Shown: positions 11,006 through 43,572 of the stretch, piece after piece | How the letters are laid out: each line of letters opens with the position of its first letter | How positions within the stretch are numbered: position 1 is the stretch's first letter | NCBI GenBank assembly: GCA_947629005.1 | Contig: CANRCD010000007.1 | Location: forward strand, 17,661-81,660 | DNA: 64,000 nt | DNA from: an uncultured Clostridia bacterium | GTDB taxonomy: Bacteria; Bacillota; Clostridia; UMGS1883 | Direction: 5' to 3' | The notes under the pieces: model-generated | Told to the model about the DNA's origin: nothing | The model's input: the letters and a program-made list of their open reading frames with translations, nothing else | The model's database searches: none | Program-made: the position numbers and the translations under genes

Positions 11006-12208
11006 TTAGGCGTTAATGGAAGATACAACGCCGGAGCCAACGGTCCTGCCGCCCTCGCGGATAGCGAAGCGGAGACCTTCCTCGATGGCGATGGGGGTGA
11101 TAAGCTCAACGTCCATCTTTACGTTGTCGCCGGGCATGCACATCTCGGTGCCGGCGGGCAGGGAGATAACGCCGGTAACGTCGGTGGTTCTGAAATAGAA
11201 CTGAGGACGATAGTTGTTGAAGAAGGGGGTATGACGGCCACCCTCCTCCTTGGTCAGCACGTAAACCTGACCGGAGAACTTGGTGTGGGGATGAATGGAG
11301 CCGGGCTTGGCAAGAACCTGACCGCGCTCAATCTCGTTCCTCTGAACGCCGCGAAGCAGGGCGCCTATGTTATCGCCGGCCTCGGCGCTGTCGAGGAGCT
11401 TGCGGAACATCTCGATACCGGTAACTACAACCTTGCGGGCCTCGTCGGTAAGACCAACGATTTCAACCTCCTCGCTCATCTTGAGGGTGCCGCGCTCTAC
11501 ACGACCGGTGGCAACGGTGCCGCGGCCAGTGATGGAGAATACGTCCTCAACAGGCATAAGGAAGGGCGCGTCGGTGGGACGCTGAGGAGTGGGGATATAG
11601 CTGTCAACGGCGTCCATAAGGTCCAGAATGGGCTTATAAACGGGGTCGTTGATGTCGGTAGAGGTGCTCTCGAGAACCTCAAGGGCGGAGCCTACAATGA
11701 TGGGAATATCATCGCCGGGGAACTCGTACTCGGTGAGAAGGTCGCGAACCTCCATCTCAACGAGCTCGAGCAGCTCATCGTCGTCAACCTGATCTCTCTT
11801 GTTCAGGAAAACAACGATGTAGGGAACGCCAACCTGACGGGCAAGCAGGATGTGCTCGCGGGTCTGGGGCATAACGCCGTCGGCGGCGGAAACAACAAGG
11901 ATAGCGCCGTCCATCTGCGCAGCGCCGGTGATCATGTTCTTAACGTAGTCGGCGTGGCCGGGGCAGTCAACGTGAGCGTAGTGACGGTTATCGGTCTCGT
12001 ACTCAACGTGGGCGGTGGAGATTGTGATTCCGCGGGCCTTCTCCTCGGGAGCCTTGTCGATCTGGTCGTAGGCGGTGTAGTTGGCCTGACCCTTCATACC
12101 AAGAACCTTGGTGATGGCCGCGGTAAGAGAGGTCTTGCCATGGTCAACGTGACCGATGGTGCCGATGTTTACATGGGGCTTACTTCTTTCAAATTTTTCC
12201 TTTGCCAT
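11006..12208 (-). CDS. tuf: Elongation factor Tu
   Basis: [23 protein letters not shown]. Confidence 0.99.
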
Positions 12209-16349: not shown

Positions 16350-17525
16350 TCACTTCTCCGAGGCGGCCCCCGTGGCGAAGGCGGTCTCCTTCACCGCGGC
16401 GGCAACGGCGGCGGCCACGCGGGCGTCCAGCGCGGCGGGCAAGATATAATCGGCACACAGCTCGGCTTCGGGCACAAGACCCGCGATGGCCTTAGCGGCG
16501 GCGATTTTCATTTCGTCGTTTATCTCGCGGGCGCGGGCGTCGAGAGCTCCGCGGAACACGCCCGGGAAGGCGAGGACATTGTTTATCTGATTGGGAAAGT
16601 CGCTGCGGCCGGTGCCTACGACGAAGGCCCCCGCCTCCTTCGCGGCGTCGGGCATTATCTCGGGCTCGGGATTGGCCATGGCGAAAATTATCGGCTTATC
16701 CGCCATGGAGCGCACCATTTCGGGCTTAAGCACGCCCTTCGCGCTGACGCCCACAAACAGGTCGGCCCCCTTAACGGCATCGGCAAGCGTTCCCTTGAGG
16801 TTTTCGGGGTTAGTATCCTCGGCAAGGGACGCGAGGGCCGAATCCATGCCCGAACGGCCTCGGTAAACAATGCCGTCGATATCGGTCATTATCACGTTTT
16901 TGAGGCCGCTCTTCATCAGCAGCCGACAGATAGCCGCGCCAGCGGCCCCTGCCCCGCTGAACACGGCCTTTATCTCCCCTATCCGCTTGCCGACAAGCTT
17001 GAGCGCGTTCATCACGGCGGCGAGCACGATTATCGCCGTGCCGTGCTGGTCGTCATGGAAAACGGGGATGGACAGCTCCTCCTTTAGCCGACGCTCTATC
17101 TCGAAGCAGCGCGGGGCGGATATGTCCTCGAGGTTTATGCCGCCGAACACGGGTTCGAGGTATTTGACGGTACGGACTATCTCGTCCGCGTCCTTCGTGG
17201 CAAGGCATATCGGGAAGGCGTCTACGCCGCCGAATTCCTTGAACAGTATGCACTTGCCCTCCATGACGGGTATGGCGGCGTGAGGGCCTATGTCGCCGAG
17301 GCCAAGCACCGCCGTGCCGTCGCTGATAACGGCCACAAGGTTATGCTTGCGGGTGTAGTCGTAGACGGAGGCGGGGTTTTTATATATCTCCCGACAGGGC
17401 TCCGCTACGCCCGGGGTGTAGGCCGTGGAAAGGTCGTCCCGCGTTTTGAGGGGGACGGCGCTTATTACCTCAATTTTGCCCCCGTGCTCCTTGTGGAGCC
17501 TGAGAGCGGCTTCTCCATAGTTCAT
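16350..17525 (-). CDS. NAD(P)-dependent malic enzyme
   Basis: AYTPGVAEPC, SDGTAVLGLGDIG, INLEDI, DDQHGTA and GRSDFPNQINN motifs. Confidence 0.95.
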   Translation of the reverse strand: MNYGEAALRLHKEHGGKIEVISAVPLKTRDDLSTAYTPGVAEPCREIYKNPASVYDYTRKHNLVAVISDGTAVLGLGDIGPHAAIPVMEGKCILFKEFGGVDAFPICLATKDADEIVRTVKYLEPVFGGINLEDISAPRCFEIERRLKEELSIPVFHDDQHGTAIIVLAAVMNALKLVGKRIGEIKAVFSGAGAAGAAICRLLMKSGLKNVIMTDIDGIVYRGRSGMDSALASLAEDTNPENLKGTLADAVKGADLFVGVSAKGVLKPEMVRSMADKPIIFAMANPEPEIMPDAAKEAGAFVVGTGRSDFPNQINNVLAFPGVFRGALDARAREINDEMKIAAAKAIAGLVPEAELCADYILPAALDARVAAAVAAAVKETAFATGAASEK

Positions 17526-18797: not shown

Positions 18798-18927
18798 AGG
18801 CACCTCCGTTCGGGCCGAAATTTTGCATTTTGTATTCTTCATTATATCACAAATTTTCCCTTGTGTCAATATTTTCCGCGCGGCATAATATGTGTTAAGA
18901 CTATTTGGAAACGGAAGGTAGACAGTT

Positions 18928-19768: not shown

Positions 19769-19879
19769 CGTAAAAAAACACGCGCAGACCGTTAAAGAGA
19801 TGAAGCCCTCGTTTCAAGGCAATTTCGGGTATTATAAACGGGAATGATATTGAAAATCCGCTCGGCCGAGCGGATTTTT
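19769..19879. repeat. Intergenic repeat element, copy 2, ending in a terminator hairpin just upstream of the phage-like operon
   Basis: CGTAAAAAAACACGCGCAGACCGTTAAAG plus GAAAATCCGCTC-GGCC-GAGCGGATTTTT (19852-19879). Confidence 0.65.
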
Positions 19880-20000
19880 GCCCGTTCTGACGCGATTTTC
19901 TCTGCCGGCCACTGCGCCTCCGCGCTACAGGGCGAGTTTTATTACAGCTTCATTAATTCTTTTTCCCGCAATAATTTTTTGCTCTTTACGCAAAAAATTA

Positions 20001-20029
20001 TTGACACGGGACTTTTGGGGTGGTATATT
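20001..20029 (+). promoter_or_regulatory. sigma-A promoter of the phage-like operon
   Basis: TTGACA (20001-6), 17 bp, TATATT (20024-9) with an extended TG. Confidence 0.8.
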
Positions 20030-20041
20030 ATACCCATAAAG

Positions 20042-20055
20042 CGAACAAATGTTCG
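20042..20055. promoter_or_regulatory. LexA/SOS box (Bacillota Cheo box)
   Basis: CGAACAAATGTTCG fits CGAAC-N4-GTTCG; begins 13 bp after the -10 element. Confidence 0.85.
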
Positions 20056-20103: not shown

Positions 20104-20403
20104 ATGAAAGTGACAAAAAGGAAAAACGAAGGAGCGGTAAAATTCTGCATAGTGTGCGGGAAAAAGATACCCGAGAGCAGCAACCGTCACAAAATATGCG
20201 GGGAACGCTGCCGTCTTAAGCGGCGATACCTTGCGCGGCGCGGTCAGGCCGCGCCATACGAGTACGCGACGGAGCCGCCGATAGCGGCATACTCGCTGGG
20301 AGAGCTTCAGCGTCGGGCGCGCGAGGCCGGACTAAGCTACGGGCAGTACATGAGCAAGCTGCACGCCGGAGGGCTCAGCCTGCACGGGAGGAGCGCGACT
20401 TGA
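20104..20403 (+). CDS. Small Cys4 zinc-finger protein, phage-associated (start may be GTG 20110)
   Basis: CIVC..C...C; C-terminal AREAGLSYGQYM; GGAGG RBS. Confidence 0.65.
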   Translation: MKVTKRKNEGAVKFCIVCGKKIPESSNRHKICGERCRLKRRYLARRGQAAPYEYATEPPIAAYSLGELQRRAREAGLSYGQYMSKLHAGGLSLHGRSAT

Positions 20404-21995
20404 AAAAGCAGGGGCAGCGCAAGCTGAAAGAGCTTATCGAGGGCTATTTTGCCTACTGCGCCGGAGAGCCGCGGCTGGACGCGGACGGCAATCCGCTGCT
20501 TGACAAGAGCGGGGCCGAGATAAGGACGAACGTGCGCCCTCCCACCGTGAGCGGGCTGGCGCTGGCGTTGGGTTTCGACAGCCGCCGCGAACTGACGCGT
20601 TTCTGCGGAAACGCGGCCGAAAATGCCCTTATCGAAAACGCGCTGCTCAGGATAGCCAACTACAACGAGGAAAAGCTCTTTGACAAGGACTGCGCCCGCA
20701 GCGCGATATTCAACCTGTCGAACGGCTGCGGCGAAGATGAAATGGAGAACGCCGCCGAGCTGCGTATTCCAGCCGAACTGCTGTGCGCGGGCTTCATAGA
20801 CCTTTACCGCGACATCCGCGCCGGTAAGCACGCCGAGTACGTGCTAAAGGGCGGGAGAGGAAGCACAAAGTCGTCCTTCGCGGCGTTGGTGACGGTGGAG
20901 CGGCTTTTCAGCCATCCGGACGAGCACGCGCTTGCCATGCGGCAGGTCGGCGCGACGCTGAAAGACAGCGTGTACTCCCAGCTTTGCTGGGCGGCGGCGG
21001 CCCTCGGGGTGGAGGACGAGTTCGAGCGAAAGCAAAGCCCGCTCGAACTTATACGCAAGGCCACGGGCCAGCGGATTTACTTTCGCGGGGCGGACGACCC
21101 CTCGAAGCTGAAATCGCTGGCCCCGCCCTTCGGACACATCGGCACGCTGTGGCTGGAGGAGCTTGACCAGTTCGGCTCCGAGGCGGCGGTGCGCTCGCTG
21201 GAGCAGAGCGTGCTGCGCGGCGGCGACGGAATTGCGATAAAGACCTTCAACCCGCCCCGCTCGCCAGCCGCTTGGGTGAACCGCAGCATGGCCGCGCCCA
21301 AGGCCGGCCGCCTTGTGCATCACAGCACTTACCTTGACGTGCCGCCCGAATGGCTGGGCGGGCGGTTCATCGACGAGGCCGAACACCTTAAGACCGCCGA
21401 CCCGAAGTCCTACGCCCACGAATATTTGGGCGAGTGCAACGGCGACGGCGGGCCGGTGTTTGAAAACCTGACGCTGCGCGAGATTACGGACGACGAAATA
21501 TCGCGCTTCGACAGAACGCTCTGCGGCATAGACTGGGGTTGGTATCCCGACCCCTTCCGCTTTTGCAGGGTGAGCTACGTGGCGGCGGAAAGGCGGCTGT
21601 TCATCTATGACGAGATAAGCGGAAACAAGCTGAGCAACGCGAAAATAGCCAAGCTGCTGCGGGAAAAAGGCGTCGGCTACGGCGACAGGATAACCGCCGA
21701 CAGCGGCGGCGAGGGGCCGAAAAGCATAGCCGACCTAAAGACGGCGGGCTTCCTTATAAGAGGGGCCGCGAAGGGGCCGGGCAGCGTGGAATATTCGATG
21801 AAGTGGCTGTGCGCGCTGAGCGAGATAGTCATTGACCCAACGCGCTGCCCCTGCGCCGCAAAGGAGTTCCTTGAATACGAATACGAAAAGGGGCGCGGCG
21901 GCGAAGTGATAGGCGGCTACCCTGACCGTGACAACCACTCCATCGACGCGGCGCGGTACGCTACGGAGGAAATCTGGCGAAAGAGAGGGGTTTAA
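20400..21995 (+). CDS. Terminase: N-terminal gp3-type small-subunit domain fused to a PBSX-family large subunit
   Basis: IEGYFAYC..RPPTVSGLALALGFDSR (TerS-like); GGRGSTKS Walker A, WLEE Walker B, GIDWG and DNHSIDAARY nuclease motifs. Confidence 0.9.
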   Translation: MKKQGQRKLKELIEGYFAYCAGEPRLDADGNPLLDKSGAEIRTNVRPPTVSGLALALGFDSRRELTRFCGNAAENALIENALLRIANYNEEKLFDKDCARSAIFNLSNGCGEDEMENAAELRIPAELLCAGFIDLYRDIRAGKHAEYVLKGGRGSTKSSFAALVTVERLFSHPDEHALAMRQVGATLKDSVYSQLCWAAAALGVEDEFERKQSPLELIRKATGQRIYFRGADDPSKLKSLAPPFGHIGTLWLEELDQFGSEAAVRSLEQSVLRGGDGIAIKTFNPPRSPAAWVNRSMAAPKAGRLVHHSTYLDVPPEWLGGRFIDEAEHLKTADPKSYAHEYLGECNGDGGPVFENLTLREITDDEISRFDRTLCGIDWGWYPDPFRFCRVSYVAAERRLFIYDEISGNKLSNAKIAKLLREKGVGYGDRITADSGGEGPKSIADLKTAGFLIRGAAKGPGSVEYSMKWLCALSEIVIDPTRCPCAAKEFLEYEYEKGRGGEVIGGYPDRDNHSIDAARYATEEIWRKRGV

Positions 21996-22005
21996 CATTA
22001 AAGCT

Positions 22006-23328
22006 ATGTTTTGGAAAGGAAGGTTGAGGAAGATGTTTACGCCCATATCGAGAGAGGAGGAGATCAGGCGGGCATTCGGCGTCAAAACCGGTGAAAACCG
22101 CATGGACGCCGCCCGCAGACGCTGGCGCGGCCTTTACGAGGGAGGCGGACTGCGACTTGCGGCGGCGGTGGCGGGCGAGCTGGCGCGGCTGACGGTGATG
22201 GAGCTGAAATTTAAGGTGGAAGGCGGCGCGAGGGCCGCGTTCCTCAACGGCTGCCTTGACAGGCTCCGCGCGGGGCTGAGGCAGGACATGGAAAACGCCG
22301 CCGCCGACGGCTGCATAGTCTTTCGCCCTTACCCGAACGGGGATACGTTAAGAGTCGAGGCTGTGCGCTCGGACTGCTTTATTCCTATATCATGGGAAAA
22401 CGGCGTCTGCACGGAAGCGGTGTTCGTGCAGGAGCTGAAAAAGGAGGACGAGCTGTTTACGCGGCTGGAGCATCACTCGCTTGAAAACGGCCGCTACAGG
22501 ATAGAAAACGCGGCTTACCGCAGCAAAGGCGGCGGCCTCGGCGCTCGCTGCTCCCTTGCCGACGCGGACGAGTGGAAGGATTTGGCGGAGAGCGTAGTTA
22601 TCGAAAACGTCAAAAGGCCGCTGTTCGGCCTGTTCAAAACGCCAATCGCCAACACAATCGACCCCGATTCGCCGCTCGGAGTTTCGGTGTTCGCGCGGGC
22701 CGAGGAGCAGATAGCGCAGGCGGACGAGCTTTACGAAAATCTGCTGTGGGAATTCAGAAGCGGCAAACGCCGCCTTTACGTGGACGTGACGGCCTTCGAG
22801 CGAGGGGCCGACGGAAAGCCCCGCCTGCCCGACACGGAGCTTTACCGCGCGATAGACCTCGGCGACGGCGGACTGTTCAACGAGTGGTCGCCCGAATTCC
22901 GTCACGAGGCGCTGCTCTCCGGACTGAACGAGGTGTTAAGGCGCATTGAGTTCAACTGCTCGCTGGCATACGGAACCCTTTCGGAGCCGAGCTACGTGGA
23001 AAAGACCGCCGAGGAGGTGCGCGCCGGCAGACAGCGCAGCTACTGCTTCGTCAGCGAGCTGCAAAGTCAGCTACGCACGGCGCTGACCGACCTCGTTTAC
23101 GCAATGGACGTGTGGTGCGACGTATGCTCGCTTGCGCCGGCAGGCAAGTACGAATGCTCGTTCGAGTTCGACGACTCGATTGCCGCTGACCGCAGAGCCG
23201 AATACGAGGAAAAGCTGCGGCTGACGGAGCTGGGCGTAATGCTGCCGTGGGAGCTGAGGGCGTGGTATCTGGGCGAGAGCGAGGAAACTGCCAAGGCGGC
23301 GCTGAGCCGCGCGGAGGCCGGAGCATGA
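22006..23328 (+). CDS. Portal protein (A118/SPP1 gp6-like); start may be 22033
   Basis: Follows terminase; FTRLEHH, PIANTIDPDSPLGVSVFARA, LRRIEFNCSLAYGTLS and FDDSI motifs. Confidence 0.88.
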   Translation: MFWKGRLRKMFTPISREEEIRRAFGVKTGENRMDAARRRWRGLYEGGGLRLAAAVAGELARLTVMELKFKVEGGARAAFLNGCLDRLRAGLRQDMENAAADGCIVFRPYPNGDTLRVEAVRSDCFIPISWENGVCTEAVFVQELKKEDELFTRLEHHSLENGRYRIENAAYRSKGGGLGARCSLADADEWKDLAESVVIENVKRPLFGLFKTPIANTIDPDSPLGVSVFARAEEQIAQADELYENLLWEFRSGKRRLYVDVTAFERGADGKPRLPDTELYRAIDLGDGGLFNEWSPEFRHEALLSGLNEVLRRIEFNCSLAYGTLSEPSYVEKTAEEVRAGRQRSYCFVSELQSQLRTALTDLVYAMDVWCDVCSLAPAGKYECSFEFDDSIAADRRAEYEEKLRLTELGVMLPWELRAWYLGESEETAKAALSRAEAGA

Positions 23329-23639
23329 AACTGAGGCACATAAGGGTGTTCAGCCTTAACAAAGAGGCCGGAGGGTACGCATATAACGACTACCGCGGTA
23401 CGGCGGAACTGGAGGACGGCGACGAGACCGACAAATCGGGCCGCCGCAGACGCTGCTTAGGCAGCGTGAGGCTGATGACGCGCGAGGACATACGCGCTGT
23501 GCCAGGGGATTACGTGAGCCTCGGCTTGGCGGAGGAGCCCGACAAGGGGCGCGACTTTTACATAACCGCCGTGAAGGACAACCGCAGGGGCAACCTCCCC
23601 CACTGGAGGCTTTTGGTCGGAAGGAGGGGACTGGGCTGA
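23325..23639 (+). CDS. Putative head-closure/stopper protein
   Basis: ATGA overlap with portal; PGDYV..ITAVKDNRRG.LPHW. Confidence 0.6.
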   Translation: MKLRHIRVFSLNKEAGGYAYNDYRGTAELEDGDETDKSGRRRRCLGSVRLMTREDIRAVPGDYVSLGLAEEPDKGRDFYITAVKDNRRGNLPHWRLLVGRRGLG

Positions 23640-23974
23640 AGCTGACGCTGAAAAACGCGGACGAAATACTACGCGAGCACGGCCTTGAAAACGGCGGCGC
23701 GGTGCAGCGTACTGTTGACGAGGCCGTTATAAGCCTGTGCGAGCCGTACGTGCCGGTGGACACGGGAGCCCTCAAGGCCAGCCCATACACATACTCGCCG
23801 CCAGGCGAGGGAAGGGTGGTTTACGGAGTGGCTTACGCAAGGGAGCAGTACCTTAACAACAAGGGCGACGGCGGACTGCGCGGCGCAAGGTGGTTCGACC
23901 GCATGAAAGCCGACCGCCTTGGCGACATTGTGGAGCGGGCGGCCTCTGCCGCAGGCGGAAAAGCGGAATATTAA
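23636..23974 (+). CDS. Neck/tail-completion protein (Minor_capsid_2-like), probable CTG start
   Basis: PYVPVDTGAL..YAREQY..RGARWFDRM; AAGGAGG RBS upstream of CTG 23636. Confidence 0.7.
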   Translation: MKLTLKNADEILREHGLENGGAVQRTVDEAVISLCEPYVPVDTGALKASPYTYSPPGEGRVVYGVAYAREQYLNNKGDGGLRGARWFDRMKADRLGDIVERAASAAGGKAEY

Positions 23975-23989
23975 AGAAAGGAAAATGAA

Positions 23990-24307
23990 ATGAAGTTCGT
24001 TTTTGAGGATTTTTCCCGCGAGGTGGACAACACCGAGGTATCGGTGGCAAAAAAGTACGAAAAATGCCTTGAGGACTTTTACGTCCGAGTGGCGAAAATC
24101 GACATGAAGGGTACGGCCAGCGGCATATACGGCGAGATAGTGGACGCGGGCATGGCCATGATGGAGGACTTCTTCGGCAAGGGCAGCGCGGAGGAGATGT
24201 TTAAGGAGAGCCGCAGCGTGAGAAAGGTCATGACGGCGGTATGCGGCCTCAACAAATACATGAACGACATAGGCTCCGTCATTGAGGAAATGAAGGGCCT
24301 GTCGTGA
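23990..24307 (+). CDS. Putative tail assembly chaperone
   Basis: 105 aa, helical, EDFFGKGSAEEMF; directly precedes the Gp15-like gene. Confidence 0.55.
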   Translation: MKFVFEDFSREVDNTEVSVAKKYEKCLEDFYVRVAKIDMKGTASGIYGEIVDAGMAMMEDFFGKGSAEEMFKESRSVRKVMTAVCGLNKYMNDIGSVIEEMKGLS

Positions 24308-24840
24308 GCATAATTACGGGTGCGCTCCCCGACAGCGTTGAGTTTGAAGGCAAAAGCTACGCGGTCCACACGGATTTCCGCCGCTGGATAGCCTTCTTCG
24401 AGGCCGCCGGAGAGAGGGATTTGGTGGGTATGCTGAAGGTTTACCGCGAACTGCCGCCCTCGGCGGATACGGCCGTCGCGCTGGCGTTAGGCTTCGGAAA
24501 CGGAGCGGCTCTGCCTTACGGGGGCGGAGGGAAAAGAGCCGTGCTGGACTTTGAGACCGACGCCGCGCTGATTTACGCCGGATTCATGGGGGAATACGGG
24601 ATAGACCTATGCGAGGCCAGTCTGCACTGGTACAAGTTCTGCGCGCTGCTTGCGGGACTGGGACAGGACAGACGTATCTCGCAAATCATGGAGCTTCGCG
24701 CCGAGGACGCGGGGCTTGTGCAGGACAAGGCCCGTAGGCGCAGACTGCGGGAGCTTCAGCGAAACTACGCCATACCTGACAGAAGGTCGGCGCAGGAAAA
24801 GGACGGCGGACTCGTTCGCTGTCTGGGCGAATTTTATTGA
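24304..24840 (+). CDS. Gp15-family (A118) tail assembly protein
   Basis: TDFRRWI, LDFETDAALIYAGF..EYGIDL..LHWYKF. Confidence 0.8.
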   Translation: MSIITGALPDSVEFEGKSYAVHTDFRRWIAFFEAAGERDLVGMLKVYRELPPSADTAVALALGFGNGAALPYGGGGKRAVLDFETDAALIYAGFMGEYGIDLCEASLHWYKFCALLAGLGQDRRISQIMELRAEDAGLVQDKARRRRLRELQRNYAIPDRRSAQEKDGGLVRCLGEFY

Positions 24841-24855
24841 GAAAGGGGAAGGGAA

Positions 24856-25230
24856 ATGACGACGGAGATTTCCGAGGAGGAAAAGACGCTCGGGGCCGAG
24901 GAAGAGCTTGAGGCTCTCAGGGCGGAAAACGAGGCCCTGCGCGCCCGCGTGGCGGAGCTTGAGGCCGAGCTCGACGCGGCGAGGCTCGATTTCGCGGTGG
25001 AAAACGAGCTGCGCGGCTTTGGGGCAAAGAGCTCCAAGGCGGTGCGCGCGCTGCTCGACATGGGCGCAGTGGAGCTCGCCGACGGCGAGGCCAAAGGCCT
25101 TAAGGAGCAGCTTGAAAAGCTGCGCGAGGAGCACGGCTACCTATTCGCGGGCAAAACGCCCGCGGTGGCGGCTCCCACAGGAAAAAGCCGCGGAGGCGGC
25201 TTCGGCTTCAAATTTACGGGCGTCAGATAG
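24856..25230 (+). CDS. Capsid scaffolding protein (GP20-like)
   Basis: Acidic coiled coil; GAKSSKAVRALLD..GLKEQLEKL..YLF; directly before the capsid gene. Confidence 0.8.
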   Translation: MTTEISEEEKTLGAEEELEALRAENEALRARVAELEAELDAARLDFAVENELRGFGAKSSKAVRALLDMGAVELADGEAKGLKEQLEKLREEHGYLFAGKTPAVAAPTGKSRGGGFGFKFTGVR

Positions 25231-25258
25231 ACGCATACAAAAGGAAGGAGAATGACTA

Positions 25259-26137
25259 ATGGCAACCTTGAATTACGCGACTGAATACGCGGGCGGCCTC
25301 GCGCAGGCCTATCCTTACGTGCTGAACTTCGGCGCGCTTTACGCCTGCGAAAACGACAGCCGCTACCGCTGGGTGAACGCTAAAACCATCGAGATACCCA
25401 GCATTACCACCACCGGCCGCGTGGACGGCGACCGCGATACCGTGGAGCAGGCCAAGCGCAACTACGACAACGCTTGGGAAATGAAAACTCTCTCCCATCA
25501 CCGCAAATGGAGCACGCTCGTGCACCCTATGGACATCGACGAAACCAACATGGCGGCCTCGATAGGCAATATCACGCAGGTATACAACGAGGAGCAGAAG
25601 TTCCCCGAAATGGACGCCTACACCGTATCTGAGATATACAGCCAGTGGACGACCGCGGGGCAGAGCCCCGACACCACCGTGCTGACCGCCGATAACGTGC
25701 TTTCGGTATTCGACGCCATGATGGAGGCTATGGACGAGGCACGCGTACCCGCAAAGGGCAGAATACTTTACGTGACGCCCGCCGTTAAGACGCTCATCAA
25801 GAACGCCACGGCCCGCACCGTGAACAACGGCGAAAGCGGAATAGAACGCTCGGTGGCCGACATTGACAGCGTGGAGATCATCGCGGTGCCGAAGGACCTG
25901 ATGAAAACCAAGTACGACTTTGACGAGGGCTGGGAGGTAAACGAGGCCGCAAAGCAGATAAATATGCTGCTCATCCACCCCAGCGCCGTCATTACGCCCG
26001 AAAAGTACACCTTTGCCCGTCTTGACGAGCCCAGCGCCGGCAGCGAAGGCAAGTATGTGTACTACGAGGAGAGCTACGACGGCGTGTTCATCCTGAACAA
26101 GCGCGTGGGCGGTATAGCCGTAAACGCGGAGGCTTAG
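25259..26137 (+). CDS. Major capsid protein
   Basis: LNYATEY, AKTIEIP, FPEMDAY, RILYVTP and YDGVFIL motifs; strong AAGGAAGGAG RBS. Confidence 0.85.
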   Translation: MATLNYATEYAGGLAQAYPYVLNFGALYACENDSRYRWVNAKTIEIPSITTTGRVDGDRDTVEQAKRNYDNAWEMKTLSHHRKWSTLVHPMDIDETNMAASIGNITQVYNEEQKFPEMDAYTVSEIYSQWTTAGQSPDTTVLTADNVLSVFDAMMEAMDEARVPAKGRILYVTPAVKTLIKNATARTVNNGESGIERSVADIDSVEIIAVPKDLMKTKYDFDEGWEVNEAAKQINMLLIHPSAVITPEKYTFARLDEPSAGSEGKYVYYEESYDGVFILNKRVGGIAVNAEA

Positions 26138-26139
26138 GC

Positions 26140-26475
26140 ATGAGCTACGAGGAATACCTGTCCGTCTGCTCCGGCCAAGAGCCCATTCCGGAGGACGAGT
26201 TCGCCTTTTACGACAAAAAGGCCGGAGCCCTTTTGAGCCTCTTTACCTTCGGCAGAAGCGACGACTCGGACGACGAGGCCGTGAAATACGCCCGAGCGGA
26301 AATTGCCGGATATATCTTTGAAAACGGCGGCCGGAGGGGTATTGTCAGCGAAAGCAACGACGGCCTCAGCGTCAGCTACGACGGCAGCGATGACGCCGGA
26401 GCTTACGCCATCGCAAAGCAGTGGCTGGGCGGCGGAGGTATGATGTACCAAGGAGTTGAGCGCTGTGATAATTGA
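26140..26475 (+). CDS. Head-tail adaptor
   Basis: SYEEY..TFGR..VKYA..SESNDGLSVSY..MYQGV. Confidence 0.7.
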   Translation: MSYEEYLSVCSGQEPIPEDEFAFYDKKAGALLSLFTFGRSDDSDDEAVKYARAEIAGYIFENGGRRGIVSESNDGLSVSYDGSDDAGAYAIAKQWLGGGGMMYQGVERCDN

Positions 26476-26875
26476 CGGCGTTAAGCGGTTTTTCGAGGGC
26501 TGCCCCCTGCTCGGGGGAGCGGAGGTAAACGTGAATTACCTCGGCAGGGACGGCGGCGAGTACAGCATTGACAGCCTCCCCTCCTCCCCGCTGGTGAAGC
26601 GGTACGTGGACGGCGGAGAGGTGCGCCGCTTCGACTTTACCTTCGCGGCAAGGGAGTTCCACGACGCCGACTGCCGCCAGAACACCGATTCGGCCTTGGC
26701 GTGCGAAAGGCTTATCGAATGGATAGAGGCCGAGGCCGAGGCGGGCAGGCTGCCGGAGCTTGACGGCGGGCTGGAGGCGCTGGGCCTTGAGGCGTTGAGC
26801 GGCGGATACGTCAGTTCCTCGAACGACGCTACGGCGAGATTTCAAATTCAATGCAGACTTACATACAGAAAGTGA
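26465..26875 (+). CDS. Tail terminator protein
   Basis: GTG after AGGAG; VNYLG..EYSID..KRYVDG..ARFQIQCRLTY; precedes tail tube. Confidence 0.7.
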   Translation: MIIDGVKRFFEGCPLLGGAEVNVNYLGRDGGEYSIDSLPSSPLVKRYVDGGEVRRFDFTFAAREFHDADCRQNTDSALACERLIEWIEAEAEAGRLPELDGGLEALGLEALSGGYVSSSNDATARFQIQCRLTYRK

Positions 26876-26883
26876 GGAGAAAA

Positions 26884-27345
26884 ATGGCTACTTCCAAAAG
26901 ATGCGACAAGGTGGCCTTTATGGGCGTGAGCGGCAAGTTCCACAGAATGACGAATTTCACGGAGATAACCACAAACAAAAATCCCCGCGAGTACAACCGT
27001 CAGTACGTGGACGAGGAGTTTGAACGGGCCGACGTGGTGGGCTACAACCCCTCCGTCAGCTATGCCTTCGACTACGACAAGGAAAACCCCGTGCACGGCC
27101 TGATAAAGGACATCGTTGACAAGGAGCTCGTCGGCGACGAGGCCGTGGTGGAGATAATAATGGTGGACATCGACGCCCCAGACGGGGAAAACAACGGCAT
27201 AAGCCGCCGCTGGAGCGTCATTCCCGACGCCGAGGGCGCAAGCCTTGACGCCTACACCTACAGCGGAAGCTTCAGGGCCAACGGTGAAAAGACCGCCGTT
27301 AAGGTGACTTCCACCGACGGCTGGCAAACCGTTACCAAGGGCTGA
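26884..27345 (+). CDS. Major tail tube protein
   Basis: KNPREYNRQYVDE..DVVGYNPSVSYAFD; GAGGAG RBS. Confidence 0.75.
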   Translation: MATSKRCDKVAFMGVSGKFHRMTNFTEITTNKNPREYNRQYVDEEFERADVVGYNPSVSYAFDYDKENPVHGLIKDIVDKELVGDEAVVEIIMVDIDAPDGENNGISRRWSVIPDAEGASLDAYTYSGSFRANGEKTAVKVTSTDGWQTVTKG

Positions 27346-27365
27346 GAGACCGAGGAGGTGGAAGC

Positions 27366-29111
27366 GTGGCGGCCGACGGAAGCATAGTTATTGAAACCCG
27401 CCTCGACACCGACGGCGTTGAACGGGGTCTGAGCGAGATAGAAAAGGCCGTGGAGAGCAGGCTGGAGGCCGTGGAGGACGGCGCTAAAGGCCTGATGGAC
27501 GCCGTCAGAAACGCTATCGGCTCGGCTGATTTGTCAGAGAGCGCCGCGGCGCTTATCGCCTCCGCCGCAGACGCAATAACGGGCGGAGCGGGGAGCTTAT
27601 TCTCCGCAGCCCTCGGGGCCGCCGCCGAGGCGGCTTCGGGTCTGCTTGGCGGAGCGGGACAGTTCAGCTCGGGCGGGGCCGCGCTCTCCTCTGCGGCGGC
27701 CTCGGGCATAAACGGAGCGGCGGGGGCGGTGGCCTCCGCCGCCAGAAGCTCGGCCGCGGGCGGGGCCACGGCGGCGGCCTCAGTTTCGGGGCAGTTCTCG
27801 TCGGTGGGCGCAAACCTGATGAGCGCACTCCGCAGCGGTATCGCGGCGGGCGCTTCGGCGCTGTACGCCAAGGCCGCGGCCATTGCCGCCGGAGTGGTGG
27901 CGAGGATAAAAGGCGTTTTCGGTATTCACTCGCCATCAAAGGTATTCCGCGACGAAATCGGCAAAATGCTGATGATGGGCCTTTCCGAAGGTATATTGCA
28001 GAATAAGGAGGCCGTGCTCGCGGCCTGCGAGGATCTGAGCGCGGATATGCTCGACTCCGAGAAAAAGTACCTTGCCGAGCGGGAACGCGTCGAGGCCGAG
28101 CAGGACGAGGCCGACGAAGCCCGCCGCGTGCGGGAATACGAAAAACGGCTGGCCTCGGCCAAGGACGAGACGGAGATGGAAGAAATAATCGCCGAAGAGC
28201 GGCTGAGGCTCAAAAAAAGGGCCGACGACGCTTATCTCGCCCAGCTCAAGGAAAGCTCCGAGCGGGAGCGCGAAATCGTGGATCAATTAAAGGACGACAT
28301 CACCGCCGTATACAAGGACATTGCCGAGTACGCGGAAAACGGCCTTGAGCCTATAGTAAAGAGCCGCGACAAGCTGAGCGAACGGCTGAAAAAATACGCC
28401 GCCGAAAGCTTTGGCTACGAGGAGCGCGAGTACAGCATAAGCCTTCGCGAGGAGACGTCAATCGGGGCGGTGAGACGCCGCGATGCGACAATGCCGGTTT
28501 ATCTGCTCTCCGACCAGAGGGGAACCATCGAAACGCTTCGCGGCTACAGCGAGGCCCTAAGCTCGCTTTCAAAAAGGCTGAAGGAGAGCTTTTCGCCGGA
28601 AACGGCTCGCGACTTTATGCACGCGCTGGCCGAACTGGACGTGGAGGAAGCCTCGACCTTCGCACAGACGCTGCTGACCGCCGACGACCGTATGTTCGGC
28701 GATTATGTGGAGCGCTGGACCGAAAAGAACGAGCTGGCCGAGGCCATTGCCAGCCAGCTTTACAGCGATGAATTCACCGAGGCGGTTGACGACTGCACCG
28801 ATTATATGAAATCGGCGCTGGAGGCAGTGGGGCTTGAGGCTCCGGAGGGCTTTTTTGCAAGCGGAGCGGCCAGCGCGCGGGAATTTGGCAGGGGCTTTAG
28901 CGAAGGGCTGAACAAGGCGCTGGAGGACGCGCGCGGACTTATCGAAAGCTTCGGCGGCTTCGGCGCGGCTTCGGCGGGCTCGGGCGGCGTGGTGAACAAC
29001 ACAAATTACTACAACAGCTACTCCATAAGCGGCACAAAGAGCACCGCTGCGGAAAGCATCCGCGCCGTTGAGGCCGCGGCTACAATGAACAGGTACAGGG
29101 GGCTTGGCTGA
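27366..29111 (+). CDS. Tail tape measure protein (short, 581 aa)
   Basis: MAADGSIVIETRLD start; Ala/Gly-rich; FGIHSPSKVFRDEIG motif. Confidence 0.85.
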   Translation: MAADGSIVIETRLDTDGVERGLSEIEKAVESRLEAVEDGAKGLMDAVRNAIGSADLSESAAALIASAADAITGGAGSLFSAALGAAAEAASGLLGGAGQFSSGGAALSSAAASGINGAAGAVASAARSSAAGGATAAASVSGQFSSVGANLMSALRSGIAAGASALYAKAAAIAAGVVARIKGVFGIHSPSKVFRDEIGKMLMMGLSEGILQNKEAVLAACEDLSADMLDSEKKYLAERERVEAEQDEADEARRVREYEKRLASAKDETEMEEIIAEERLRLKKRADDAYLAQLKESSEREREIVDQLKDDITAVYKDIAEYAENGLEPIVKSRDKLSERLKKYAAESFGYEEREYSISLREETSIGAVRRRDATMPVYLLSDQRGTIETLRGYSEALSSLSKRLKESFSPETARDFMHALAELDVEEASTFAQTLLTADDRMFGDYVERWTEKNELAEAIASQLYSDEFTEAVDDCTDYMKSALEAVGLEAPEGFFASGAASAREFGRGFSEGLNKALEDARGLIESFGGFGAASAGSGGVVNNTNYYNSYSISGTKSTAAESIRAVEAAATMNRYRGLG

Positions 29112-29950
29112 TGGAAATGATTTTTGAAAACGCCGCCGGCAGCGTGCGGCTGGACGGCGGCAGGGGCGGCGCTCCCTTCCGCATACGCGCGGCGGAGGGG
29201 CTGGGCTACATGAGCATGACGGCCGCCACCGCCGAATATCCCCGCAGAGCGGGCCAGAAAACCATAACACGCACCGCCGGCGCGAGAATCATCACGCTGA
29301 GCTTTGACGACGCGGCCGCCGGCGCCAACACCGAGGGCGTTCTGGCAAGAATATTCCACGGAGAGGGGCGGCTGACCGTCGTCAGCGGAGCAAAGCGCGT
29401 ACACGCCGACTGCTACGCCAGCGCAATGAGCGCGCAGCAGCGCTTCGGCACGGACTTCGGACGCTATACGGTGCAGCTCACCTGCGATTATCCCTACTTC
29501 AAGGGCGAGACGCGGCTCGCGCCGCTGTTTGGGCGCGAAAAGCTGATAAAGGCGGGCTTCTCGCTGCCGTCAATACTGTCGCGCCGCACGGAGGGGAACA
29601 AAGTATCCGTTGGCGGCGACGCGGACATATACCCGCGGCTGCTTCTGGGAAATCTGTCCTCGGCGGAGGAATTTACCCTCGAGGCGCTGAACGAAACCAC
29701 CGGCGCGGCGCTCCGTCTCAATCTGCCCGCCGGAAGCTACCCGTCGATTGAGGCGGACCTTGCCGAGGGCAGCATAAGCTGCGGCGGAAAGGATTTGACG
29801 CGCTATCTTGACGAGGATATCTACATGAGCGATTTCCTGCTCAGCCGAGGCGAAAACTCCCTGAAAATCAAGGCCGAAGGGCTTACAGGCGAGGCTTGGG
29901 CAACGGTGGAATTTGAGGAGGAGTACGTTTCGGCATTGGAGGAAGCATGA
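29111..29950 (+). CDS. Distal tail (Dit)-like protein
   Basis: Follows tape measure; EGLG..RIITL..QLTCDYPYF..FLLSRGENSL. Confidence 0.7.
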   Translation: MEMIFENAAGSVRLDGGRGGAPFRIRAAEGLGYMSMTAATAEYPRRAGQKTITRTAGARIITLSFDDAAAGANTEGVLARIFHGEGRLTVVSGAKRVHADCYASAMSAQQRFGTDFGRYTVQLTCDYPYFKGETRLAPLFGREKLIKAGFSLPSILSRRTEGNKVSVGGDADIYPRLLLGNLSSAEEFTLEALNETTGAALRLNLPAGSYPSIEADLAEGSISCGGKDLTRYLDEDIYMSDFLLSRGENSLKIKAEGLTGEAWATVEFEEEYVSALEEA

Positions 29951-30909
29951 GAGAGGAAATCGTTTTTTATGACTACGAGTTCAACCCGCTGGGCCGCACA
30001 GTGAACATTACGGACATATACCACAAGGAGCTTTACAACGGTATCGGCTCCTTCGAGGCGGGACTCACCGCCGATGACCCAGCGGCAAGGCTGCTGCTGG
30101 AACGCGACTTCACCGTGGCCGTGTGGGAGAACCGTCAGGCGATAATCACCTCCACCCAGACGGACAACAGCACGGGGGCGTTCCGCGTTTACGGGCGCAC
30201 GCCCAACTGGCTGCTCTCGAAGCGGGCCTGCCCCAACTTCGGCCACAGAAAAGGCACGCCCTTTGAGCTGGCCCACGCGTTGGTGGAAGAGGTTTGGGGG
30301 GACGCTATTGCGGTGGGCCCCGGCAGGGACATAACCGCCGCGACAACCACCTTCTGGCGAAACGTCTACAACCCGCTGAGCGAGGTGGTGGCCGACTGCC
30401 TTGACCGAGCCGGAGGCGGCCACCGCGTGGTTTTTGACACAAAAAAGAAGGAGTGGCGTTTTGAGACTTGGCTCGGCGGCGAAAGCCCCTGCCTTTTCAG
30501 CGAGGACAGGCGCAGCATAAGCACCCAAAGCCTGCGCCGAAGCGTGCTGGACTACTTCAACGGCGGCTTCTACTGCAAGGACGACGAGGACGGCACTTGG
30601 GTGGAAATACCCTCGGATAAAGAGGGAATATACCGATGGACTACCCGATTGGACGGCTCGGGCGAGGACGCGGCCAGAAGCGACCTTATGCGGCGGCGCA
30701 TTGAGGACGAGGGCGATTTTGACGTCCTCGGAGAACCGGACGGAACCTACGCGCTGGGCGATACGGTGAAGGCGCAGCTCTGCTGCGGAAGCTTCAGGAA
30801 AACGCGTGAAATGCGCGTCGCAGCCATCGAGCGTTGGTCCGAACGCGGGAGCAGCGGCGAAAGACCGCTGCTGAAATCTATATACGATAACGAGGGGGCC
30901 AAAGAATGA
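29947..30909 (+). CDS. Tail tip/baseplate hub protein (Gp37/Tal-like)
   Basis: VFYDYEFN..YNGIGSFE..YALGDTV; position after Dit. Confidence 0.65.
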   Translation: MREEIVFYDYEFNPLGRTVNITDIYHKELYNGIGSFEAGLTADDPAARLLLERDFTVAVWENRQAIITSTQTDNSTGAFRVYGRTPNWLLSKRACPNFGHRKGTPFELAHALVEEVWGDAIAVGPGRDITAATTTFWRNVYNPLSEVVADCLDRAGGGHRVVFDTKKKEWRFETWLGGESPCLFSEDRRSISTQSLRRSVLDYFNGGFYCKDDEDGTWVEIPSDKEGIYRWTTRLDGSGEDAARSDLMRRRIEDEGDFDVLGEPDGTYALGDTVKAQLCCGSFRKTREMRVAAIERWSERGSSGERPLLKSIYDNEGAKE

Positions 30910-31754
30910 AATACTATTTCAGCGATAACCGCAGCTACGGCGCGGACGACCTAAAGGCCGCGCTGGGCGTGCTGGTGGCCGCCGGAGGCATAACCGTAAA
31001 TCTGAGCGACTCAGAGAGCTACGACCCGTCGAAGCTGAACGGCCTTATCGGCAGCGCGGTTGCGGCGGGAGTGGTGCCGGAAAACAACGCCAGTTTAAAG
31101 CTTATTAAGAGCGGCGACGGCTACAGCGTAATGCCGGGCAGAGCCGTGTTCTCGGACGGCGGGATAGCCGTGTTGGACGCGAGCGCGCCCGTTGACGCAA
31201 AACCCGGACAGTATGTGTATCTGGCATACAGCGCGGCGTTGGACGACGTTTACTTTATTGCGGAGGACACGGAGCAGACCGAACACGGCGGAGTGCTGCT
31301 GGTGCCGCTGGGCCGCGTGAAACCCGACGGCAGTGTGGAAAACCGCCGCGTTTACGCCCGCGGAAGGGTGCCGGCGCTGGCCTCGGCCAACTGGACGAAC
31401 CTCCGAACGGTGGAGCTTTCGGTGGACGTGTCATCGCTGGGTGCAAACGGGGGATATGTCGAGGCGACGCACGAGATTGACGGCGACATGAATTTCATGC
31501 TGGTGGACGACCACACGCTGATAAGCGTAATGCACACCGGCGCGGAAACGGCCTATCACACGGTAATGCGCTCGACCTCACGCGATACCAGCAACAACAG
31601 AGACTATCTGGGCATAACGCAGACCGTCAACGGCACTGTTCGCGCCACGCTTATCAGCCACGGCAACGGCTATATACGGATGAGGTACTATGTGCCCGGG
31701 CCGGTGAAAACCAAGACGCTGACCTATACCGCTCTGATAGGCATAACCGCATGA
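30906..31754 (+). CDS. Baseplate/receptor-binding protein, last gene of the operon
   Basis: YFSDNRSYGADDL..VMPGRAVFSDG N-terminus; beta-rich C-terminus. Confidence 0.55.
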   Translation: MKYYFSDNRSYGADDLKAALGVLVAAGGITVNLSDSESYDPSKLNGLIGSAVAAGVVPENNASLKLIKSGDGYSVMPGRAVFSDGGIAVLDASAPVDAKPGQYVYLAYSAALDDVYFIAEDTEQTEHGGVLLVPLGRVKPDGSVENRRVYARGRVPALASANWTNLRTVELSVDVSSLGANGGYVEATHEIDGDMNFMLVDDHTLISVMHTGAETAYHTVMRSTSRDTSNNRDYLGITQTVNGTVRATLISHGNGYIRMRYYVPGPVKTKTLTYTALIGITA

Positions 31755-31802: not shown

Positions 31803-31830
31803 AAAACCCGCTCTGCCGAGCGGGTTTTTT
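31803..31830. terminator. Bidirectional terminator ending the phage-like operon and comF
   Basis: AAAACCCGCTC-TGCC-GAGCGGGTTTTTT. Confidence 0.85.
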
Positions 31831-31871: not shown

Positions 31872-32636
31872 TCACCTTGGCGTCAACAGCCCTTCCGTAA
31901 AGGCCGTCTCCACGGAAGGGAACGGCGTCTTGTTTATATCCGTGCCGGAATAACCAAGCCCCGCTCTGGCGACGGCCGCGCCGTACACGCTGCCGCAGCC
32001 CATGCGGCGCAGCAGAGTGCAGCACCATTTCATGGTAGCGCCGGTAGTGATAACGTCGTCCACCACGAGCCATGTCCCGCTCAGCCTTTTCTTAGCGGCG
32101 GGATGGTAAAGCCTTCGGGCATTAGTAAGGCGGCGACTGCGGCTTAGGCCCACCTGATCCTCGCCGCCCTCTATACGCCTGAGAACTCTTCTCACGGGCA
32201 CGTCAAGCAAGCGGCCAAGCTCGCAGGCGATTAGCCTCGCATGATTGTAGCCGCGCTCGCGGCCCGCCTTTCGGCTCTGCGGCACGTATGTAATGCAGTC
32301 GGGCCGAAAGCCGCCCATCTCGTCCGCTATGGCGCGGGCGAAGCAGCGGAAGGCCGCGGGGCGGGAGTAAAACTTCATATTTAAGATTGCGCGGCGGACG
32401 CCGTCGCGATAAGAGAAGGGCACAAAGCACTTTTCATACGGTACGCCGCCGCGGCAGTCGGCACAGTTTGGCATGGCAAACTCGCCGCCCATGGGCGCGG
32501 CGCAGATAGAACATCTTGGGCCGGTGATTTTTGGGAGCCCGTCCTCACAGACAGGACAAAAACCATCCGCGCTCTCCGCCAAGGCGCCACATATAGGGCA
32601 CTTGGGCGGAAACAGCAGCGAAAGCAGCCCCTTCAT
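31872..32636 (-). CDS. comF: ComF family protein (double zinc ribbon + phosphoribosyltransferase domain)
   Basis: LFPPKCPIC..CPVC..CSIC..CADC; RGYNHA; LVVDDVITTGAT. Confidence 0.92.
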   Translation of the reverse strand: MKGLLSLLFPPKCPICGALAESADGFCPVCEDGLPKITGPRCSICAAPMGGEFAMPNCADCRGGVPYEKCFVPFSYRDGVRRAILNMKFYSRPAAFRCFARAIADEMGGFRPDCITYVPQSRKAGRERGYNHARLIACELGRLLDVPVRRVLRRIEGGEDQVGLSRSRRLTNARRLYHPAAKKRLSGTWLVVDDVITTGATMKWCCTLLRRMGCGSVYGAAVARAGLGYSGTDINKTPFPSVETAFTEGLLTPR

Positions 32637-32893
32637 CCCTGAGCCGTCCTGCCCGAGCGCTTCTTAGCGCGGGCGGGGGACTGGCCGGCGTCTCCCTCGC
32701 GGACTATGATATCGCTTAGCTCACAGCCCAGCGCCTCGCAAATTTTGTCCAGATGGTCGAGGTTCACCCTCTCGCACATTTCATGATACATATCGTTTAT
32801 TGTATTCGCCCTTATGCCGGTCTTGCGGGCCAAGTCGGCCTGCGTCCAGCGCTTTTCTCCAAGCCTTGTGGAAAGCATTATCCTTATCGACAT
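32633..32893 (-). CDS. Cro/C1-type (XRE) HTH transcriptional regulator
   Basis: WTQADLARKTGIRANTI..LDKICEALGCELSDII; overlaps comF by 4 nt. Confidence 0.88.
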   Translation of the reverse strand: MSIRIMLSTRLGEKRWTQADLARKTGIRANTINDMYHEMCERVNLDHLDKICEALGCELSDIIVREGDAGQSPARAKKRSGRTAQG

Positions 32894-38519: not shown

Positions 38520-38595
<76 letters not shown>

Positions 38596-43244: not shown

Positions 43245-43248
43245 AATA

Positions 43249-43572
43249 TCATCCCTTAATTTTTATCGGTATACCGCAGACAACGCGTTCCACGGTCTCG
43301 GCCCTTTCCGCCAGCAGACAGCCCACGCGGCCCACGGCCTCCCGCCAAAGTCGGTCGGGCTTTTCCAGCGGGATTATGCCGCAGCCTATTTCGTCCATGA
43401 CTATGACGGCGTCGGGATTTTCCGCGAGAAAATTTTCGGTCTCGGCCAAAGGGTCGAGGCCGGCTTCGAGCCACCGACGTACTTTCAGCTCGTAGCCGTC
43501 CGTGTGGCAGCCGTATTTTTCGCCCGCATAGAGGGCCTTGCCCTGATGGGCTCCGCCGATGATTAACCTCAT
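43249..43572 (-). CDS. Short CobU-like protein (107 aa)
   Basis: LIIGGAHQGK..DEIGCGIIP..RVVCGIP. Confidence 0.75.
   Translation of the reverse strand: MRLIIGGAHQGKALYAGEKYGCHTDGYELKVRRWLEAGLDPLAETENFLAENPDAVIVMDEIGCGIIPLEKPDRLWREAVGRVGCLLAERAETVERVVCGIPIKIKG

Follow-up and report, generated by a model that had tools for sequence, protein, structure and literature searches.

A phage-type structural operon in the genome of an uncultured gut bacterium raises the question of whether phage-like particle production can be placed directly under the control of the SOS repressor of the host, LexA. The operon and its promoter lie in a stretch of 64,000 nucleotides (nt), referred to here as the window, which covers positions 17,661 to 81,660 of contig CANRCD010000007.1 (assembly GCA_947629005.1). 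The genome, denoted G000, has a size of 2.04 Mb and a G+C content of 54.7%, and belongs to an uncultured Oscillospiraceae-type gut bacterium; it was compared with ten other genomes of the genus, G001 to G010, and all 11 are metagenome bins. An earlier reading of the letters of the window (the sequence-only reading) had proposed that the operon is wired directly to the host SOS regulon, that DNA damage de-represses particle production without any phage regulator, and that this is a sign of domestication. Our analysis makes it quite likely that the locus is a domesticated particle system, similar to gene transfer agents (GTAs) and to the defective prophage PBSX, which is gated directly by the host LexA. 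This reading is drawn from the motif, its position and conservation, the regulon context, the vertical inheritance and purifying selection of the cluster, and the lack of mobility and lysogeny genes, all of which were computed.

The promoter of the operon is of the strong sigma-A type and combines an A-tract, a consensus −35 hexamer, a 17-nt spacer and a TG-extended −10 hexamer (Table 1). The promoter scan matched the site at 20001-20029 in 11 of the 12 hexamer positions, in addition to the TG extension. The palindrome begins 12 nt past the −10 hexamer and covers about +6 to +19 if counted from the inferred transcription start, where blocking of the promoter is possible, and CGAACAAATGTTCG fits the Cheo-box consensus GAAC-N4-GTTC given in PMC4234289. 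The TTGACA-17-TGnTATATT promoter and the palindrome just past the start site are therefore present as the sequence-only reading had described them. The insulating terminator that it had placed upstream is backed by the fold of the hairpin at 19853-19878, which has an energy of −17.3 kcal/mol (z = −3.46) and was equalled by one of 200 shuffled sequences; the consensus terminator scan did not report this hairpin, because its T-run begins within the stem. The unit upstream of the hairpin consists of two small open reading frames (ORFs). The Rfam search at gathering thresholds returned only a tRNA and a cobalamin riboswitch, with no match around the promoter. A CodY-like site in the promoter spacer was also considered and was dropped as a poor match.

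The palindrome is of the type found at the SOS genes of the host itself. G000 encodes a single canonical LexA of 199 amino acids (aa), which matches the TIGR00498 equivalog with 222 bits and contains a VAAG cleavage site along with the Ser/Lys residues; the LexA DNA-binding domain occurs in just this one protein, and the genome also holds further S24-family proteins. The lexA gene carries three boxes of the Cheo type (G000:C2 205470-205560) and is divergent from a small LysM gene, whose product we take to resemble the cell-division inhibitor YneA in an arrangement as in Bacillus subtilis. The box of recA, AGAACATACGTTCG, also lies 12 nt after the −10 hexamer, a geometry matching that of the cluster promoter, and the box of uvrB-uvrA sits between the −35 and −10 hexamers. 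At G000:C6 42534, the box CGAACATTTGTTTG lies over the −35 hexamer of a gene for a 461-aa radical S-adenosylmethionine (SAM) protein of putative DNA modification or repair type, which makes this gene a putative further member of a very small SOS regulon. Across the genus, a box was found ahead of recA in 8 of 9 genomes, with none within 260 nt of the recA of G007, and ahead of lexA in 10 of 10. The scoring matrix was built solely from 26 recA and lexA boxes of the genus, and it gives the cluster site 23.0 of a maximum of 23.4 bits, the first rank among all 14-mers of G000 and above the operators of lexA. The identification of the palindrome as a LexA box, for which the sequence-only reading had proposed a check for the same motif at the recA and lexA of this genome, is supported by both the box type and the top matrix score.

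The number of sites is less informative. The window contains seven sites with at most one mismatch, where 3.38 are expected, and 8 of 100 shuffles reach seven; two sites are perfect, at 20042 and 17144, and the genome has five perfect sites against about 2.2 expected by arithmetic from the base composition. Such numbers would suit a decaying prophage remnant, in which the LexA-like palindrome is a chance match or a relic without a regulatory role, as would the location of the other perfect site within a metabolic gene and the variation of the chromosomal neighbourhood among species. Because the counts are indecisive, the argument rests on the position and conservation of the site. The full consensus CGAACAnnTGTTCG is present in one copy each in 6 of the 11 genus genomes, every copy at the cluster promoter, and the reversed-pattern control gave zero to one copy per genome. 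The upstream region is assembled in seven of the eight other genomes that have the cluster; among these orthologous promoters, five carry a perfect box at the same spacing, one has a single mismatch and one is undecidable because the contig ends, so that the conservation on which the sequence-only reading had staked its proposal was largely found. In the alignment of seven species, the invariant columns number 12 of 14 in the box, 5 of 6 in the −35 hexamer, 8 of 14 in the spacer and 5 of 9 in the TGn-10 element, compared with 0 of 48 in the 5′ untranslated region and 6 of 94 upstream. The promoter and the box thus form a conserved island amid DNA that cannot be aligned, and the position and conservation of the site, together with its top genome score and its being the sole full-consensus copy, lift it above chance. 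None of the 16 genes of the cluster is broken, purifying selection acts on them in two species pairs that are free of saturation, and the cluster and host trees are congruent; a functionless remnant therefore appears very unlikely.

The second perfect match in the window, CGAAC-N4-GTTCG at 17144-17157, falls within G+C-rich coding sequence of the malic-enzyme gene and is probably a chance match.

The history of the cluster was traced through the genus. The capsid gene is present in eight of the ten other genomes with 84-96% identity, and all 16 genes are collinear in six species, G002, G003 (as far as the contig end), G004, G006, G009 and G010. The pairwise identity of 15 concatenated cluster proteins correlates with that of LepA, RecA and LexA with r = 0.91 over 36 non-independent pairs. 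The cluster tree and the host tree concur at every supported split, and genomes with the cluster are found to either side of the midpoint root in the 11-genome host tree. The ratio of nonsynonymous to synonymous substitution rates (dN/dS) is 0.158 for the pair G009-G010, with 16 of 16 genes within 0.04-0.27 at a dS of 0.45, and 0.117 for the pair G000-G005, with 11 genes at a dS of 0.48; the pair G001-G004 was set aside because of saturation (dS 1.38) and of a failed estimate for the portal gene. The cluster is therefore vertically inherited and held by purifying selection.

The surroundings of the cluster are chromosomal. The upstream flank in G000 encodes S12, S7, EF-G, EF-Tu, malic enzyme, CoaX and a phosphoesterase, and the downstream flank encodes a ComF-like protein, an XRE protein, PgsA, a radical-SAM methylthiotransferase of the RimO/MiaB type, RecX, a HemN-like radical-SAM protein and LepA. 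In other species, the cluster neighbours are S12 (G002), L7/L12 and holA (G004), hisB (G009 and G010), RsmD and CoaD (G003) and a phosphotransferase system (PTS) gene (G006), which are housekeeping genes throughout and include no integrase. These differences, and the fragmented state of the binned assemblies, could be explained if the operon were the late module of a still-mobile temperate phage or satellite that relies on LexA for its repression, as the phage GIL01 does, with the remainder located elsewhere or unassembled; LexA-repressed phage promoters are indeed known, namely P1 and P3 of GIL01 (PMC4551915, PMC6182141). No integrase, replication or lysogeny gene was found inside or beside the cluster in the seven species, and its tree is that of the host. 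In G000, no tyrosine recombinase lies on the contig of the head-tail cluster or on that of the fibre locus described below; those of this genome sit on other contigs. The joints listed for three DNA runs include none that skips the whole cluster, a finding of little weight, as these runs consist of contigs only. Given also the distance of the viral relatives and the lack of the box in phage-like relatives, both described next, a mobile element is quite unlikely.

In the comparison outside the genus, we used the best 80 capsid-relative loci of named Clostridia genomes (1.09 Mb) and 80 viral contigs (1.15 Mb). In both sets, similarity beyond the genus is confined to the capsid, with at most 69% identity, and the other genes are below about 55% or gone. 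Among 404 capsid relatives, the best capsid of a viral contig has 67% identity, and the 80 viral contigs have at most 8 of the 16 genes in common with the cluster. Upstream of the terminase, sites of at least 16 bits occur only in five genus loci among the 80 named-genome loci, where one unrelated match was found elsewhere, and the 80 viral contigs contain no site of at least 16 bits. A promoter-type LexA box was found neither in four phage-like relatives within the genus nor in four more phage-like loci, three from relatives of the family or order and one a second locus of G002. No Faecalibacterium record is among the best 80 capsid relatives. The domestication claimed in the sequence-only reading is accordingly supported without recourse to the box, by 16 collinear genes, congruent trees, low dN/dS, housekeeping flanks without an integrase and the finding of no close phage contig.

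Some further observations concern the immediate vicinity of the cluster. Directly downstream, on the minus strand at 31872-32893, lie a ComF-family gene of the DNA-uptake type and a co-directional gene for an 86-aa XRE-type regulator, and neither adjoins the cluster in the other species examined. In G004, the cluster is followed about 2.5 kb downstream by an S24-peptidase (LexA/CI-like) gene (C7 about 24845-25459; L045 19345-19959), and in G001, the contig of the cluster has a weak S24-like match (G001:C26 about 11994-12161); no S24-peptidase gene is beside the cluster in G000. One DNA run contains two small joints inside the cluster, with short sides of 21 and 29 nt, which probably derive from other organisms. 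One RNA library, available as contigs only and so not informative on transcription, its level or its start, contains pieces of 174-351 nt with at least 98% identity that cover the portal, the 130-aa gene, the scaffold, the tape measure, the Dit/minor-tail junction and flanking genes.

The operon itself comprises 16 genes in 11.7 kb (20110-31754), running from the terminase through the tail tip in one direction and tightly packed, and its family matches indicate that it encodes DNA packaging, a head and a non-contractile, siphovirus-like tail. The genes are listed in Table 1. No sheath, integrase, repressor, sigma factor, replication or lysis gene is among the family matches of the 16 genes. 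For the first gene, the most likely start is GTG at 20110 rather than ATG at 20104, because GGAGG lies 7 nt upstream and the orthologues start with MTKRK. Its Zn-ribbon product has no match in PHROGs or NCBIfam, its Atlas neighbours are hypothetical viral proteins, and it is 67-72% conserved in six species. The terminase matches the PBSX-family model TIGR01547 with 110.5 bits at a cut-off of 105 and is the only terminase found in G000 with the three Pfam families searched. Within 20400-20700, its N-terminus matches GP3_package (27.4 bits, below the cut-off) and phrog_606 (3.5e-6), which suggests a fused or degenerate DNA-recognition part.

Table 1. Coordinates of the promoter, the putative operator, the structural operon and the second locus; positions are those of the window unless another contig is named.
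Feature	Position	Strand	Basis and remarks
−35 hexamer, TTGACA	20001-20006	+	read in sequence
Promoter spacer, 17 nt, cGGGAcTTTTGGGGTGg	between −35 and −10	+	read in sequence; part of promoter 19990-20029
Extended −10, TGg and TATATT	20021-20023 and 20024-20029	+	sequence
Promoter including an A-tract that is invariant among 7 species	19990-20029	+	sequence, promoter scan, 7-species alignment
Putative LexA (Cheo-type) operator, CGAAC-AAAT-GTTCG	20042-20055	.	sequence; predicted from motif
Intrinsic terminator-like hairpin with U-run	about 19852-19879	+	fold; closes upstream unit 19178-19765
Gene 1, small Zn-ribbon protein, about 97 aa	20110-20403	+	weak DUF2116 treble-clef Pfam match
Terminase large subunit with small-terminase-like N-terminal region	20400-21995	+	PF04466 1.8e-38, PF17288, phrog_3717, phrog_606
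Portal protein	21928-23328	+	phrog_533 1.6e-102; start may be further downstream
Four small virion/assembly genes: 130 aa, 90 aa (minor-head-like), 105 aa, 178 aa (Gp15-like)	23247-24840	+
Scaffolding protein	24856-25230	+	PF06810 6.3e-23
Major capsid protein	25259-26137	+	phrog_422 7.6e-104
Head-tail adaptor and tail completion protein	from 26140, before tail tube	+	phrog_541, phrog_3266
Tail tube protein, 164 aa	26851-27345	+	AlphaFold2 (AF2) model, pLDDT 77; Foldseek
Short tape measure (581 aa), Dit-like protein, Gp37-like minor tail protein, 282-aa protein of unassigned role	27366-31754	+	Pfam/PHROGs-type matches
Strong intrinsic terminator ending the operon	31803-31828	+	11-bp stem, 6 G-C pairs, T-run
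Fibre-lysis operon: tail fibre, holin, endolysin, DUF6291	G000:C8 about 26779-30460 (L003 8780-12460)	minus	fibre, holin and endolysin genes at about 27460-30460

The four small virion/assembly genes are kept in six to eight species; for the 130-aa gene, the phage relatives compared yielded no homologue. The minor-head-like, 105-aa and Gp15-like genes (23702-24840) precede the scaffold and capsid genes, unlike the order in the phage-like loci L195, L196 and L197. In the phage-like loci, the homologues of the 90-aa, 105-aa and 178-aa genes are located behind the capsid gene; two of them, those of the 105-aa and Gp15-like genes, come after the tube gene, in the usual position of tail chaperones. 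The AF2 model of the tail tube protein shares its fold with the tubes of phage 80alpha, NF5, monocin, lambda V and RcGTA (the last at rank 39), with a Foldseek probability of 1.00 and a TM-score of about 0.45-0.5 against phage, monocin and RcGTA tubes; in the tail-tube alignment, the row of L197 was removed because of an internal stop. The block from the tape measure to the end of the operon is collinear in the five other species whose contigs extend that far.

Lysis genes are found at a second locus of G000, on another contig, between pectin-lyase and HlyD-like genes. The second operon encodes a tail fibre (phrog_892, 2.7e-45), a holin (PF05105), an endolysin with Amidase_2, PG-binding and SLH domains, and a DUF6291 protein whose gene occurs in G000 and G005 only. 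It is headed by a perfect LexA box (G000:C8 30398), which is among the few other strong boxes in the genome, and its promoter, TTTACAcGGtAcTTTTcGGaTGgTAatAT, matches that of the head-tail operon in the hexamers and the spacer. The promoter motif T[TG]ACAnGGnAnTTTTnGGnTGnTA has exactly two copies in G000, at these two promoters, and the relaxed motif is restricted to the two kinds of promoter among all loci fetched by then. Eight of ten upstream regions combine the fibre N-terminal domain with the shared promoter, and the other two belong to internal or paralogous copies. The gene order over six loci is fibre-holin-amidase in four, fibre and holin followed by the contig end in one, and fibre and amidase only in one. 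The fibre locus and the head-tail cluster agree in 10 of the 11 genomes, where either the two were found together or neither was found. The LexA box at the fibre-lysis promoter is limited to two of eight species, namely G000 and its sister G005, and the promoters of the other six have unrelated hairpins at the position of the box.

The spacer of the promoter (20007-20023, GGnAnTTTTnGGnTG) is kept across species and between both loci, including the fibre promoters of eight genomes, and it may be a binding site for another factor. This observation bears on a different explanation, in which the palindrome is a hairpin at the 5′ end of the RNA or the site of another regulator, and the conserved spacer rather than LexA is the real switch. 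The non-conserved hairpins at the equivalent position of the fibre promoters of six species would be consistent with it, as would the specificity of the spacer for the two loci and the further S24-family proteins of the genome. At the head-tail promoter, the arms of the box are invariant and the changes fall almost wholly in the N4, the equivalent of the loop, which is the pattern expected of a protein site and not of a stem held by compensatory change; the 5-bp stem is in addition weak. The genome has a single protein with the LexA DNA-binding domain, and the site equals the consensus of recA and lexA. We therefore regard the alternative of a hairpin or another regulator as unlikely, and direct repression by LexA as the better account of the box.

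The mechanism by which LexA would act can be outlined as follows, where LexA binding and SOS induction, like particle formation and the cargo and role of the particles, are what we infer from sequence. A dimer of the host LexA would bind the consensus Cheo-type box just past the transcription start and block RNA polymerase at the single strong promoter that would drive the packaging, head and tail genes. As the box is the best-matching LexA site in the genome, repression would be tight and the site would be among the last to be vacated, so that the operon would fire only after severe or sustained damage. RecA-stimulated self-cleavage of LexA would deplete the repressor and release the operon late, and the fibre, holin and endolysin of the second operon would supply adsorption and lysis; in G000 and G005, that operon would be gated by LexA likewise. 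Severe DNA damage thus probably turns on particle production.

Several results weigh against direct LexA gating of a domesticated system and limit its reach. The bare motif counts are near chance genome-wide, and counts alone cannot rule chance out. The box of G004, CGAACAAATGTTTG, has one mismatch; G001 has no box in the 84 nt before the first gene, where its contig ends; and the promoter region of G005 lies outside its assembly. The cluster was not found in G007 (86% complete) or G008 (91% complete). At least five distinct chromosomal neighbourhoods occur among the seven species, which could mean mobility and not rearrangement. The linkage of the two loci depends on metagenome binning, and because the fibre-lysis box is absent in six of eight species, LexA alone cannot explain coordinated lysis across the genus. 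The conserved promoter spacer hints at an additional regulator. Of the regulator-free de-repression put forward in the sequence-only reading, direct gating by LexA is supported, while the absence of any phage regulator is not established, given the conserved spacer common to the second locus and the Zn-ribbon protein encoded by the first gene.

Comparison with known systems places the locus among GTA-like elements. It has packaging and structural genes without replication, integration or lysogeny genes, it is vertically inherited under purifying selection, and its two loci have a common promoter motif, as is characteristic of GTAs. GTA-like packaging of bacterial DNA is reported to be prominent in gut Ruminococcaceae and Oscillospiraceae (PMC12946183, Nat Commun 2026). 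The FpGTA of Faecalibacterium prausnitzii consists of a packaging/head operon I of about 10 kb and an operon II of about 5 kb with fibre, holin and endolysin genes, and its 40-nm particles carrying about 9-kb DNA were demonstrated experimentally (PMC12946183). The cluster resembles FpGTA as a chromosomal, phage-derived, genus-wide system in gut Oscillospirales that is split into two operons and has no lysogeny or replication module (PMC12946183). However, FpGTA is described as podovirus-like, a particle type without tape measure or tube, with 10 ORFs, whereas the 16 ORFs here include a tail tube, a tape measure and a Dit protein and are siphovirus-like; and particles with packaged DNA were shown for FpGTA, whereas the present system is known from its genes and is likened to FpGTA by layout. 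The main text of that report contains neither the word 'LexA' nor the word 'promoter', and regulation is not described there (PMC12946183).

A precedent for the regulation is GIL01, a temperate tectivirus of Bacillus thuringiensis, in which the host LexA binds Cheo-type boxes at P1 and at the late structural and lysis promoter P3 (PMC4551915, PMC6182141). The statement in the sequence-only reading that late phage genes are normally not controlled directly by LexA therefore does not hold for all phages, since GIL01 provides a case of direct LexA control of phage promoters (PMC6182141). GIL01 and the cluster are alike in having host LexA boxes on a late structural promoter and no dedicated phage repressor (PMC4551915, PMC6182141). 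They differ in that GIL01 is an autonomous phage that requires the co-repressor gp7 and the LexA-like activator gp6, whereas neither is present among the 16 genes here, no replication genes were found, and the cluster is a vertically inherited non-replicon.

The terminase of the cluster is a large subunit of the PBSX family, and this family alone links the cluster to PBSX. PBSX itself is about 28 kb in size and has a contractile tail, its own repressor and a late sigma factor, with control by Xre/Xpf. Its sheath, repressor and sigma genes were not found here. PBSX of Bacillus subtilis is, in functional terms, an SOS-inducible, GTA-like defective prophage that packages host DNA (PMC7667829).

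GTAs of other bacteria are linked to DNA damage by other routes. In the RcGTA of Rhodobacter capsulatus, LexA acts indirectly via CckA and is needed for production (PMC9638019), and the CcGTA of Caulobacter is repressed by RogA, which is LexA-like but lacks catalytic residues, and activated by GafYZ (PMC9632790). Both are domesticated head-tail clusters with extra loci elsewhere, host control and a link to DNA damage, as is the case here (PMC9638019, PMC9632790); the difference is that a canonical LexA operator lies directly on the structural operon of the present system. In the literature consulted on GTAs and on Clostridial GTA-like clusters, no LexA operator on a GTA structural operon was found. 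A functional parallel is offered by the colicin operons of Escherichia coli, which are LexA-repressed through high-affinity operators and lead to lethal, altruistic release late in SOS. Colicins differ in that a plasmid-borne protein toxin is released with a lysis protein and not a particle, and in that the operator is of the type CTGT-N8-ACAG. Among the particle systems of gut Clostridia that resemble GTAs or defective phages, the present locus is best regarded as a siphovirus-type variant that is gated directly by LexA.

The window contains further features outside the particle system. On the minus strand, a promoter matching 12 of 12 hexamer positions with a TG extension lies at 18841-18869 inside a 272-aa phosphoesterase ORF; the start of the phosphoesterase is probably downstream of this promoter, because the Metallophos domain begins at residue 115. 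The cobalamin riboswitch (58267-58468, minus) stands ahead of a long run of minus-strand genes downstream of it, whose cob genes are at 38757-43632, and the tRNA gene is at 38520-38592 (plus).

In a wider reading, which we put forward tentatively and hold to be somewhat short of an even prospect, gut Oscillospirales would have repeatedly domesticated small phage particle systems directly behind the strongest LexA operator of the genome, and damaged cells would, as an altruistic programme, package chromosomal DNA, lyse and donate the DNA to kin. In the present lineage, the gate would have two inputs. The first input would be LexA on the head-tail operon and the second a factor that reads the spacer of both promoters. 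This factor might be made by the operon itself, the Zn-ribbon protein being an example, and lysis would then be coupled to prior expression of the head and tail genes. The triggers, if this is true, would be severe DNA damage as caused, for example, by quinolones or host-derived genotoxins.

For the biology of these bacteria, a conserved and top-ranked LexA operator on a structural operon would provide a concrete trigger for the GTA-like systems of gut commensals. The locus would also be an example of how a host can rewire a captured virus, in which the switch of the phage is gone and the stress repressor of the host sits on a strong promoter. Drugs that damage DNA are, on this view, predicted to cause both lysis and a flow of genes through capsids among abundant commensals of the gut.

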